This document shows positions 20,655-25,694 of a stretch of 64,000 nt of DNA, piece by piece. A program made the position numbers and the translations under genes. Each line of letters opens with the position of its first letter. Positions within the stretch are counted from its first letter, which is position 1. The notes below the pieces were generated by a model, which was given only the letters and a program-made list of their open reading frames with translations, did not search any database and was not told the origin of the DNA. This stretch comes from Escherichia coli. Its GTDB lineage: Bacteria; Pseudomonadota; Gammaproteobacteria; Enterobacterales; Enterobacteriaceae. The stretch lies in assembly GCF_003334765.1 (NCBI RefSeq), contig NZ_QOWT01000021.1. One strand, 5' to 3'.

Positions 20655-21206
20655 TTACAATTTTTTAATTATTCTGGCTGGATTACCGCCCACGACAACG
20701 TTGTCCGGGACATCTTTTGTGACAACTGCACCTGAGGCTACCACGACGTTATCACCAATGGTCACACCAGGGTTAATGACCGCGCGTCCGCCAATCCAGA
20801 CGTTATTACCGATGGTGACGGGTTTCCCCAGTTCAGCACCGCTATTACGTGCTACAGGGTCGATGGGATGTGTTGCCGTGTAGATATGAACGCCTGGTGC
20901 CAACATACAGTTATCACCGATGCGAATAGGGCAGACATCAAGCATCACGCAATCGAAGTTGGCGAAAAAATTATTACCGAGAAAAATGTTATAGCCATAG
21001 TCACAGCGAAACGTTGGCTCAATATAAGCCTCTGTCACCTGACCGAATAGATCAGCGAGAATTTGCTGGCGTAATGTGTGCTCTTCCGCCAGGGAATGAT
21101 TGTATCGGTGAATAAGCTGACGAGCGCGCAGGCGATCGCGAGATAACGTCTCATCTGCCGAGCGATACAACTCACCAGCAATCATCTTTTCTTTTTCTGT
21201 GCTCAT
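20655..21206 (-). CDS. maa: Maltose O-acetyltransferase, left-handed beta-helix hexapeptide repeat (183 aa)
   Basis: Hexapeptide repeats ([15 protein letters not shown]..., [25 protein letters not shown]). Confidence 0.95.
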
Positions 21207-21377
21207 TACTGACCTCCGGTTGCTGAAAATGCGGCAACACAGTAAGACGAAAAGTCAGTGAAGAGAACGTTCCCATTACATCTGTGTGATAAAGATCACA
21301 TAGGGTATGTCTTCATGGCGAAAAAGTATAAAATTCTTAATAAACAGCCGGTTATAGCTCCGAAAGCGAATTATTTA

Positions 21378-21596
21378 TTAGCGAATAAATTTCCATACTG
21401 AGGAAGGGATCTTGTCGTACAGTTTATTCATGGTCAATTCGGCGAGGCGGTGATCTGCGGCTGAGTAAAATACCGCCAGTTCATTATCTGATAATTCGTA
21501 TTTATTTTTCTCGATAACACGCTCCAGCGTGTCAATTGTCTGGCAACGACGTAAACGCATTAAATAATCGGTTTTCGTTAAAGGTTTTTCGGACAT
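21378..21596 (-). CDS. hha: Hha haemolysin-expression modulator, H-NS co-regulator (72 aa)
   Basis: Track ORF 21378-21842 is over-extended; ATG 21594-21596 gives [27 protein letters not shown]. Confidence 0.95.
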
Positions 21597-21621
21597 ACTT
21601 CTACCTATGGTTGTAATAATT

Positions 21622-21996
21622 CTAACAAGATAAACTCGCAGGATTCTCTTTCGTCGCATTGACAAAACAACGGAATAGTCGATTACCTGACTTCCGCCAT
21701 TTCTGAAGATCCTGCATATTAATACCATAACTACTGAACAACATAAAGGTGTCATCCAGATATTCGTCGATCTGCTCAATGAGCTTATTGTCTTCATTAT
21801 ACTTAATTTTGTAATTAAGTGCGAAGGTCGCAATATGCTCAATCAGTTCATTCAACTGGAGGTTGATCGCCGAGGTTGGGTCGTTTACCCAGCCATGATT
21901 GCTTTCTTCAAGGTTTGCAAGGCAGTCATGATACAGGGTTTCACAGAGAAACTTAAGCTGTGCGATATCATGTCTTTTGGGTGAGTATTCATCCAT
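21622..21996 (-). CDS. tomB: TomB (YbaJ), Hha-associated modulator (124 aa)
   Basis: Full-length match [26 protein letters not shown]; immediately upstream of hha in the same orientation. Confidence 0.93.
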
Positions 21997-22501
21997 AACG
22001 CGTCCCCTTCTTAGCGGTTGAACTAACGGACACCTTTCGGGATGGAAAAAACTTACTGACCTGGACTTGCCCTCTCGTTTGTTAGCTTAACTATAAGCCA
22101 CTCTTTGCAGGTTTTCATCGCATTATTACGAAAAATTACAATTAGGAAGGAAGCGGGACAGGACTCACTTTTTCATACTAGCACTAACCCGCAGCAGGTA
22201 AAAGCAGTTTGCTCGAACTATTCATAACATTTCAGGATTATCGCCAGATGAAATTGGTGACACTAATACCAGGATTGCTCTGAATATGACGTAATAACCG
22301 AGGAATGAATAAAGAATTACCGCAAATAATTAAGAATAGCCTCTAAATGATTATGGATTATTAAATCTATTAGCGCTACTTAATATAAATTAACTAACAA
22401 TCAGTATTTTTTATGAATTTTATCCGTGGTTAATACTGGTTTTCGTATGAGATCCTGAGTTGGTGGTTCAATTACTCCTTAATGTTCGTAGGTTATGCAT
22501 A

Positions 22502-22527
22502 AAAAAGGCCGCTTACGCGGCCTTAGT
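22502..22527 (-). terminator. Rho-independent terminator of acrAB
   Basis: On the minus strand GGCCGCGTAAGCGGCC hairpin followed by TTTTTT, just downstream of the acrB stop. Confidence 0.8.
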
Positions 22528-22541
22528 GATTACACGTTGTA

Positions 22542-25694
<3,153 letters not shown>

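Follow-up and report, generated by a model that had tools for sequence, protein, structure and literature searches.

The AT-rich acrB-tomB gap of Escherichia coli is probably a composite intergenic region with an 87-nt tomB leader

The gene pair equivalent to tomB-hha in Yersinia is ymoB-ymoA (tomB/ymoB, then hha/ymoA). At the orthologous ymoBA promoter, binding of phosphorylated CpxR, by EMSA, and promoter activation have been shown, with the CpxR box 56 bp upstream of TSS2; the ymoBA leader measures 106 nt and a second start lies at -188 (PMC13353760). A further group of comparable regions comprises the intergenic spacers flagged "HNS" in the SELEX tables of the Ishihama laboratory (for example upstream of osmB, galE and ompC), which are AT- and TpA-rich and in which an H-NS site adjoins a sigma-70 promoter that RNA polymerase binds alone. 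RcsB and RcsAB boxes can likewise lie far upstream, as in Salmonella at osmB (-215) and ytfK (-161) (PMC7913699) and in the flhDC box (PMC5829831); the 14-bp RcsB-box consensus is TN(G/A)GAN4TC(T/C)NA (PMC7913699), and the half-site contacted by RcsB is TTAGGAA (PMC5829831). Long regulatory 5' leaders (riboswitches, attenuators, leader peptides and RNA thermometers) also place a long non-coding stretch before a start codon. Hha, the second product of the operon, acts as a co-repressor, adjusting how strongly H-NS silences virulence, biofilm and horizontally acquired genes.

Like ymoB-ymoA, tomB-hha has a CpxR box about 50 bp upstream of its proximal start; the E. coli leader is 87 nt long, and no second start has been mapped in E. 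coli. The tomB spacer resembles the "HNS"-flagged spacers both in being AT- and TpA-rich and in the closeness of its H-NS site to a sigma-70 promoter bound by RNA polymerase alone. It differs from them in its length, which is unusual between genes of the same direction, in holding no good match to the high-affinity H-NS motif, and in that the operon product Hha is itself an H-NS partner, so that feedback is possible. The likeness to long regulatory leaders is superficial and extends to a weak conserved UCCC:GGGA pairing over the Shine-Dalgarno sequence; unlike those leaders, tomB has its start 87 nt upstream and shows no Rfam match, covariation, unusual stability or temperature dependence.

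The window analysed here is a 64,000-nt stretch of E. coli DNA corresponding to NC_000913.3 458713-522712 of E. coli K-12 MG1655 (window position = genome position - 458712), to which it was identical across the 4-kb stretch compared. The acrB-tomB intergenic region occupies window positions 21997-22541 (genome 480709-481253). The earlier note had singled it out as the largest non-coding gap, visibly AT-rich and lying between the acrAB terminator and the tomB start, and the AT-rich 545-bp gap was confirmed on each of these points. Annotated features leave 48 gaps in the window, of which the second longest measures 315 bp, with a median of 125.5 bp. The GC content of the gap is 0.378; the window as a whole has 0.524, and the length-weighted value over the other gaps is 0.457. 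It falls to 0.24 in the core of the gap (22301-22400), and the 200 bp poorest in GC anywhere in the 64 kb (0.28) fall inside the gap. The acrA-acrR promoter region, a shorter gap, has a lower overall GC still (0.355). The run quoted as an example by the earlier note, TTAATATAAATTAACTAACAATCAGTATTTTTTATGAATTTTATCC, is at 22381-22426 on the + strand, and a terminator hairpin was found on the - strand where expected from the third point. No features are annotated between 21997 and 22541 by RefSeq, nor beneath the matching DNA by PGAP in other E. coli genomes. Features recognized in and around the gap are listed in Table 1.

Table 1. Features of the acrB-tomB gap and its neighbours, in window positions
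Feature	Position	Strand	Details and basis
tomB	21622-21996	-	RefSeq annotation
tomB 5' UTR, 87 nt	21997-22083	-	start-site map and conservation profile
tomB-hha sigma-70 promoter	22083-22118	-	promoter scan; -35 ATGAAA 22118-22113, -10 TATAGT 22095-22090, start A 22083
CpxR box (predicted), GTAAT-N5-GTAAT	22125-22141	-	inside invariant block TTGTAATTTTTCGTAAT; pentamers 22139-22125
AT-rich upstream spacer	22145-22425		GC 0.342; likely H-NS-bound DNA
Conserved island ATGAA..(T)AAG(GA)	22218-22225	-	ATG kept in 69/76 species
RcsB-box-like element (candidate)	22270-22283	-	E. coli K-12 TCAGAGCAATCCTG; other genera TTAAGAATATTCCTGG or perfect palindrome TTAGGAATATTCCTAA
Distal conserved AT-rich islands	22355-22420	-	conservation profile; in or adjoining lowest-GC stretch 22301-22400
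Escherichia-only segment, ~68 nt	22426-22493	-	somewhat C-rich on transcribed strand; single-copy
acrAB intrinsic terminator	22499-22524	-	terminator scan; hairpin AAGGCCGCGTAAGCGGCCTT at 22524-22505, then T run
acrB	22542-25691	-	RefSeq annotation

We consider it likely that the gap is a composite intergenic region and not a leader. Along the - strand it comprises the acrAB terminator, about 360 bp of non-transcribed AT-rich DNA, a sigma-70 promoter and an 87-nt leader with a strong Shine-Dalgarno sequence. The 360 bp of upstream DNA are probably what H-NS binds and carry a few conserved islands resembling protein sites at fixed distances from the promoter, which is itself served by an invariant CpxR box near -49. 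This layout, the transcription start and the pattern of conservation are established, as are, from published work, Cpx regulon membership and the in-vitro binding of H-NS and RNA polymerase to the spacer. In such a region, H-NS, with Hha riding on it, would coat the AT-rich tract and lower tomB-hha transcription, creating a negative feedback of Hha on its own operon; phosphorylated CpxR, bound beside the -35, would activate the promoter under envelope stress; and the terminator and long untranslated spacer would stop transcription of the strongly regulated acrAB operon from running on into tomB-hha. The region is ordinary, largely documented E. coli K-12 promoter-upstream DNA of a well-studied operon. 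The main correction to the earlier note is a leader of 87 nt rather than 545 nt, and the comparative residue is that spacer length, AT-richness and island spacing are kept across Enterobacteriaceae, most of the sequence being free to change.

The promoter places a weak -35 and a good -10 at the spacing ATGAAA-17-TATAGT, and the promoter found in the tomB<acrB spacer by genomic SELEX with RpoD holoenzyme has identical hexamers and spacing (PMC3946193). A promoter-like site occurs at the aligned position in 76/76 species of the comparison set, which covers Enterobacteriaceae from some twenty genera. The genome-wide start-site map in the supplement of Kim et al. 2012 (PMC3415461) has a single tomB start, at window 22083, in a table that assigns starts to genes, from which orphan or condition-specific starts could be absent. 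The tomB 5' UTR is therefore 87 nt and not 545 nt, and the "long 5' UTR" of the earlier note does not hold; in Klebsiella, where the promoter is conserved, the orthologous start is 97 nt upstream of tomB (PMC3415461). In the leader, UCCAUCCCG (22046-22038) is conserved, and the Shine-Dalgarno sequence is AAGGGGA (22009-22003). Since UCCAUCCCG can pair with GGGGAUG, an RNA thermometer or a switch sequestering the Shine-Dalgarno sequence was considered. Folded together with 30 nt of the tomB start (117 nt in all), the UTR was unremarkable (-23.9 kcal/mol, z = -0.12 versus shuffles), and the consensus fold (Alifold) retained the UCCC:GGGA helix as its sole one, 4 bp long and covering the Shine-Dalgarno sequence, with no covariation. 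Shine-Dalgarno accessibility was 0.24 compared with 0.335 when the upstream sequence was shuffled, barely changed from 25 to 42 C, and was under the 10th percentile of shuffles in only 13/71 species. On account of the z-score, the lack of covariation, the near temperature-independent accessibility and the small share of species, the thermometer or switch was rejected.

The CpxR box immediately precedes the -35, with its centre some 49 bp before the transcription start. As a pattern match it has two mismatches to GTAAA-N5-GTAAA, a level of similarity that is not significant by itself in the window (58 matches found versus 43 expected); the 12-mer GTAATTTTTCGT of the block that contains it is present in 74/76 species. 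Both tomB and hha belong to the CpxR regulon in RegulonDB, and tomB is in the CpxR iModulon; tomB is not among the direct ChIP-exo targets of the CpxR iModulon study. By published regulon membership the tomB-hha promoter is Cpx-controlled, with a predicted box as the site.

That the gap would act as an H-NS nucleation site, as the earlier note had proposed, stood in part. TpA steps make up 0.114 of the spacer compared with 0.041 of the window, and the composition is of the type preferred by H-NS, with an AT-rich tract of at least 100 bp and TpA enrichment; AA/TT periodicity at 10-11.2 bp was of a strength reached by 3% of shuffles, and there are only four A/T tracts of at least 4 bases. Less favourable is the outcome for the 10-bp motif TCGATAAATT, reportedly described by Lang et al. 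in 2007 as a high-affinity H-NS site. No good match to it was found in the gap, where a site with at most two mismatches occurs once, inside the CpxR box; when up to three are allowed, the gap has 14.7 matches per kb and the window 8.2 per kb. In the SELEX-based (in vitro) table of Shimada et al. 2014 (PMC3946193), one flag marks the tomB<acrB spacer as having an H-NS site adjoining the RpoD-holoenzyme site, with no coordinates inside the spacer. The H-NS tables of Higashi have no entry for the locus. These properties are consistent with H-NS binding, and silencing of the promoter by H-NS is what we infer from them. Hha reaches the chromosome solely via H-NS/StpA (PMC3686432); because of this, autoregulatory feedback of Hha through the spacer DNA is plausible. 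Against this stands a reported feedback in Salmonella, which has been ascribed to binding of the promoter by TomB and not to Hha/H-NS.

The acrAB terminator begins 17 nt past the acrB stop codon and has the make-up of an intrinsic terminator, a G+C-rich hairpin (8-bp stem with 6 G-C pairs, 4-nt loop) followed by a T run. By the conservation profile, 71 sequences from other genera retain both the hairpin arms and the T run. The adjacent 68-nt segment is an alignment gap in all non-Escherichia genera. It is present in one copy per genome in 5424 E. coli genomes, with identity down to 80-95% in about 780 of them, and on account of the single copy a repeat or mobile element was rejected.

Rho requires long untranslated RNA, and the spacer is both long and untranslated. 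We weighed the possibility that it is mainly an insulator, in which Rho would stop acrAB read-through in the C-rich untranslated stretch and the AT-rich DNA would serve termination and not the promoter. The 76 nt after the terminator (22496-22421) have a C/G ratio of 1.64, and Adams et al. 2021 reported a bicyclomycin-sensitive "Rho region" at genome 481133 (window 22421) with a score of 2.08 (p = 5.6e-6). That score, however, compares 800-nt windows and is ambiguous because the downstream window includes the tomB promoter and the entire tomB ORF: a rise in tomB mRNA would yield an equal number, as would relief of a Rho-dependent 3' end at +72 inside tomB. Moreover, the C-rich stretch is confined to Escherichia whereas the long spacer is family-wide, and the conserved hairpin terminator looks strong. 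We regard this account as unlikely, and prefer the composite region, to which an insulating role would belong as one function of the terminator and spacer.

Across the 76 species the gap measures 435-559 bp with a GC content of 0.35-0.40, and the greater part of its sequence is free of constraint. What is conserved comprises the terminator hairpin, the CpxR box with the -35 and -10, certain motifs of the leader, and islands lying farther from tomB. Evolution in the middle of the spacer (22268-22145) looks unconstrained, which speaks against our main explanation: identity to other genera there is 0.20-0.35, versus about 0.55 at four-fold synonymous sites of acrB. The spacer could accordingly be a functionless leftover, either a decayed gene or neutral DNA under mutational AT bias, of which only the last ~150 bp matter. 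The Escherichia-only 68-nt insertion, tolerated and polymorphic, would fit this, as would a transposon insertion in the gap that is viable and was even selected in long-term culture, and the situation in Erwiniaceae, where tomB has a different neighbour and an additional 117-aa gene upstream. A remnant of this Erwinia/Pantoea gene was rejected as the source of the spacer, since tblastn gave E values of at least 0.16. If bacterial deletion bias is taken as the neutral expectation for spacer length, the length range kept in 76 species argues against a functionless spacer. The islands also keep near-fixed spacing across sequence that cannot be aligned: the RcsB-like island starts a median 171 bp (IQR 167-178) from the CpxR-box start and is kept in 71/76 species, and the ATGA island lies a median 102 bp (IQR 96.5-103) from the CpxR box. 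Together with the published binding of the spacer by H-NS in SELEX, these observations make a functionless spacer improbable, somewhat more so than an insulator. Two apparent exceptions in the gap were set aside: the IS1 "in the gap" of five strains is an insertion inside tomB (21956-21964), and the 869 bp measured for the gap in Enterobacter sp. EA-1 are an artefact, acrB being truncated there. The PdhR SELEX entry for tomB concerns a box that, by eye, seems to lie within acrB (~22999-23015) and not in the gap.

It is very unlikely that the gap is mostly transcribed as a long tomB-hha leader with a regulatory RNA, small ORF or small RNA, perhaps from a distal promoter, given the single mapped start at -87 in E. 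coli and -97 in Klebsiella. The second Yersinia start and the roughly 2-fold rise in downstream reads after bicyclomycin would favour such a leader, as would a TATAAT-like hexamer aligned at 22362-22357 in 45/76 species; in E. coli, however, AATAAT stands in its place, and the scan accepted no -35 for it. It lies among the distal islands, which in other genera read aa.tc.taaa..CTTATTG, TTTATTTT and ATAAG..TAT.AT, and the table of Kim et al. 2012 maps no start at 22355-22420 in E. coli or Klebsiella. The embedded small transcript that the earlier note had thought possible was not found: a search of 21300-22800 against Rfam at permissive thresholds gave best scores of 14-19 bits versus gathering scores of 37-51, the sub-threshold matches overlapping the terminator hairpin, and no published Term-seq 3' end is called inside the gap. 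Nor does the leader fold better than shuffles. The earlier note's statement that only tiny ORFs of a few codons occur here also needs amending, as a mechanical ORF list contains four of 21-44 aa touching the gap; with no NCBIfam family match, and none within conserved sequence, these were rejected as genes. In every case a short ORF with the initial residues M-[NKI]-x-K-[ED] starts at the ATG at 22225, but the ORFs vary from 5 to 47 codons, have unrelated tails and lack a Shine-Dalgarno sequence, and a conserved small protein was rejected on these grounds. The earlier note had opposed to its proposal a picture of one promoter immediately upstream of tomB, with neither H-NS nor other transcripts; the promoter is single and proximal and no other transcripts were found, and the published SELEX flag records H-NS at the spacer.

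Within the composite region, the lead that may be new, perhaps unreported, is the RcsB-box-like island, and this is the only such lead. It resembles the distant RcsB and RcsAB boxes in being a 14-bp pseudo-palindrome with a TTAGGAA half-site far upstream, and differs from known boxes in that it is known from sequence alone and that the K-12 copy departs from the consensus. At the aligned position, the consensus is exact in 38/76 species and its core is present in 71/76, some species having perfect palindromes. The E. coli K-12 copy, whose longer form is TTCAGAGCAATCCTGG at 22285-22270, is degenerate: it has the core, a divergent centre and G in place of the final A. Alone, this match is not significant, one-mismatch matches numbering 37 in the window versus 53 expected. 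Within the literature searched, no paper links tomB or ybaJ with the Rcs system in a regulatory sense. We tentatively suggest, and consider it rather doubtful, that this family-wide pseudo-palindrome, located some 170 bp before the CpxR box, may be a working site for RcsB or RcsB with a partner. If so, Hha levels would be tied to the Rcs envelope-stress relay, and tomB-hha, and through Hha the silencing by H-NS, would be under both the Cpx and the Rcs envelope-stress pathways, acting from an upstream nucleoprotein region of fixed geometry over H-NS-bound DNA; the Escherichia copy would then be a weakened one. In most genera the island precedes the start site by roughly 230 bp; in E. coli K-12 the distance is 200 bp, and the island sits about 27 bp nearer the promoter there than it does in other genera.

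The acrB-tomB gap is a composite: an intrinsic terminator, a long AT-rich tract that is bound by H-NS and in which a few sites are conserved, a sigma-70 promoter under Cpx control and an 87-nt leader. The start site, the promoter, Cpx control and H-NS binding have been published or databased for E. coli K-12 MG1655. The MG1655 sequence NC_000913.3 is identical to the window over the 4-kb stretch compared, and window positions were obtained by subtracting 458712 from genome positions. No feature is annotated in the gap by RefSeq, nor beneath its match in other E. coli genomes by PGAP. The earlier note had called it the largest gap and AT-rich, and so it is: at 545 bp it ranks first among the 48 inter-feature gaps of the window (next 315 bp, median 125.5 bp), with a GC of 0.378, where the window as a whole has 0.524 and the other gaps have 0.457. 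It includes the 200 bp that are poorest in GC in the entire window (0.28), GC is 0.24 in its core (22301-22400), and the AT run quoted in that note was located at 22381-22426. The hha and tomB genes are also AT-rich (21141-21992; 200-bp GC down to 0.355), so that the low-GC island extends over some 1.4 kb between the maa-hha gap and the end of acrB. A clone with a DARS1 mini-transposon inserted in the gap was among the winners of a 700-generation competition, for which the authors had no explanation (PMC5010248).

Features of the acrB-tomB region, with the identity of other genera to E. coli
Feature	Window position	Strand	Remark	Identity
acrB	22542-25691	-		
acrB-tomB gap	21997-22541		between tomB and acrB; genome 480709-481253	
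Terminator hairpin AAGGCCGCGTAAGCGGCCTT, then T run	22524-22505	-	terminator scan	
Terminator segment				0.64-0.89
Escherichia-only insertion	22493-22426		68 nt, single-copy, fairly polymorphic	
Distal AT-rich islands	22420-22355		conservation profile	
RcsB-like copy of E. coli K-12, TCAGAGCAATCCTG	22283-22270		weakened	
Intervening segment	22268-22145			0.20-0.35
ATGAA..AAG island	22225-22218		median 102 bp from CpxR box	
CpxR box block TTGTAATTTTTCGTAAT	22141-22125		essentially invariant	
Promoter ATGAAA-17-TATAGT	22118-22090	-	promoter scan	
Promoter block				0.70-0.85
Leader				0.60-0.78
Leader motif UCCAUCCCG	22046-22038		conserved	
Shine-Dalgarno region AAGGGGA	22009-22003		conserved	
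tomB	21622-21996	-		
acrB four-fold synonymous sites			reference	about 0.55

The terminator scan returned a single minus-strand site, 17 nt past the acrB stop codon. Back-up termination by Rho within the gap, as a rival or in an accessory role, is a reading that we hold with low confidence. Adams et al. placed a bicyclomycin-sensitive region, scored 2.08, at genome 481133 (window 22421), but this score compares 800-nt windows either side, of which the downstream one spans the tomB promoter and the entire tomB ORF, itself carrying a Rho-dependent 3' end at +72 (PMC7815308); the score thus cannot tell acrB read-through from more abundant tomB mRNA. The stretch past the terminator is only mildly C-rich (C/G 1.64) and is confined to Escherichia. 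The +72 end implies a 5' fragment of the tomB mRNA of about 160 nt. Term-seq 3' ends at 21924, 21727 and 21595 (minus strand) lie within tomB and at its junction with hha (PMC7815308).

In the composite, the leader is short. Kim et al. 2012 give one tomB start site in their supplementary table, which has no further start within the gap (PMC3415461); the 51-mer upstream of this start ends at window 22083, which sets the 5' UTR at 87 nt. Only 16% of the gap is therefore leader, and the 545-bp leader proposed in the earlier note was not borne out. In Klebsiella pneumoniae, transcription of the orthologue begins 97 nt upstream, from a nearly identical promoter (PMC3415461). The hexamers ATGAAA and TATAGT also form the RpoD-holoenzyme SELEX promoter of tomB-hha in Shimada et al. 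2014 (PMC3946193). Two more starts in the start-site table, at about 21612 and 21711 (minus strand, inside tomB), 16 and 115 nt 5' of hha, suggest that hha could be transcribed independently of tomB.

The same note had envisaged an embedded small transcript, for which we found no support: with permissive settings, Rfam matches in the gap reached only 14-19 bits against gathering scores of 37-51 and overlapped the terminator hairpin, and no 3' end falls within genome 480700-481299 in the Term-seq lists of Adams et al. 2021 (PMC7815308). Its description of tiny ORFs of a few codons needs correction, as a mechanical search gives four ORFs of 21-44 aa; one begins 5' of the transcription start, three lie on the opposite strand and none has an NCBIfam family match. 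Within the leader, UCCAUCCCG and AAGGGGA are able to pair briefly; a thermometer or switch was considered and rejected, as there was no covariation, unusual stability or temperature dependence.

Cpx control fits an essentially invariant block of the gap. The CpxR 12-mer GTAATTTTTCGT occurs in 74 of the 76 species compared, and a -35 and -10 follow the box in all 76. The box is a GTAAT-N5-GTAAT variant centred about 49 bp 5' of the start site, and it fits with the inclusion of tomB and hha in the RegulonDB CpxR regulon, that of tomB in the CpxR iModulon, and the binding and activation of the Yersinia ymoBA promoter by CpxR~P through a box 56 bp 5' of the proximal start (PMC13353760). On the plus strand, the reverse complement of the box and -35 region resembles a promoter, TTCATC-17-TACAAT (about 22113-22141), facing the AT-rich tract, away from tomB, in 60 of the 76 species; it may be a mere by-product of the CpxR box.

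The AT-rich tract (22145-22425, 281 bp) has a GC of 0.342, and its TpA frequency is 0.114, compared to 0.041 in the window, a composition that fits the preference of H-NS; its AA/TT periodicity at 10-11 bp is modest, 3% of shuffles reaching it. The tract has no good match to the 10-bp high-affinity H-NS motif that Lang et al. reportedly described in 2007. An H-NS site in the gap, as anticipated in the earlier note, was upheld by the Shimada tables, where the spacer is marked 'HNS', meaning that it includes an H-NS binding site (PMC3946193). Hha/H-NS feedback through this DNA, which the earlier note also proposed, is reasonable but unproven, reasonable because Hha reaches the chromosome solely via H-NS/StpA (PMC3686432). 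The sole published claim of feedback concerns Salmonella and ascribes promoter binding to TomB (PMC5133643).

A one-genome-per-species scan returned 80 loci (Escherichia, Citrobacter, Salmonella, Enterobacter, Klebsiella, Raoultella, Kosakonia, Kluyvera, Leclercia and others). In 76 distinct sequences the gap measured 435-559 bp (median 509) with GC 0.35-0.40; in Cronobacter it is 463 bp, and the lone apparent length outlier was an artefact of a truncated acrB. Conservation across the gap is a mosaic, with nearly constant distances between islands and unalignable sequence between them, a spacing that would reflect selection on geometry, for instance by a nucleoprotein complex or phased binding. 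In 45 of the 76 species a TATAAT-like hexamer lies among the distal islands (E. coli has AATAAT). The ATG of the ATGAA..AAG island is kept in 69, and the ORFs that it opens are not conserved across the 76.

One further island, starting a median 171 bp (IQR 167-178) 5' of the CpxR box, has the sequence TTAAGAATATTCCTGG or, as a perfect palindrome, TTAGGAATATTCCTAA, in agreement with both the RcsB consensus TN(G/A)GAN4TC(T/C)NA (PMC7913699) and the half-site TTAGGAA contacted by RcsB in a crystal structure (PMC5829831). The consensus is exact in 38/76 species and its core is present in 71/76. The K-12 copy alone is not significant, since one-mismatch matches in the window number 37 against 53 expected. 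We found no report of this family-wide RcsB-like box at a fixed promoter distance in the literature searched, and judge that a working RcsB site is possible but rather unlikely. The distance from island to CpxR box is 144 bp in K-12, 162-168 bp in other Escherichia and about 171 bp in other genera, which suggests that the E. coli lineage lost about 20-27 bp between the Rcs-like and ATGA islands.

The only real length outlier seen was Mangrovibacter (locus L088, 1655-2500; 846 bp, GC 0.42), whose gap has no called gene and lacks an exact CpxR 12-mer. In Erwinia and Pantoea, tomB lies away from acrB, and a 117-aa ORF without a Pfam match stands about 145-150 bp 5' of tomB (2004-2357 in the E. 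amylovora locus L085, 1995-2348 in the Pantoea sp. locus L086). The GC 0.33 region preceding this ORF carries a CTGTAATTTTCAGG...CTATAGAG stretch that resembles the CpxR-box/-10 arrangement. Finally, five genomes of E. coli that came from chicken, cheese and pig sources carry IS1 within the first tomB codons (21956-21964) with a 9-bp target duplication, and RefSeq annotates a shortened tomB in them.
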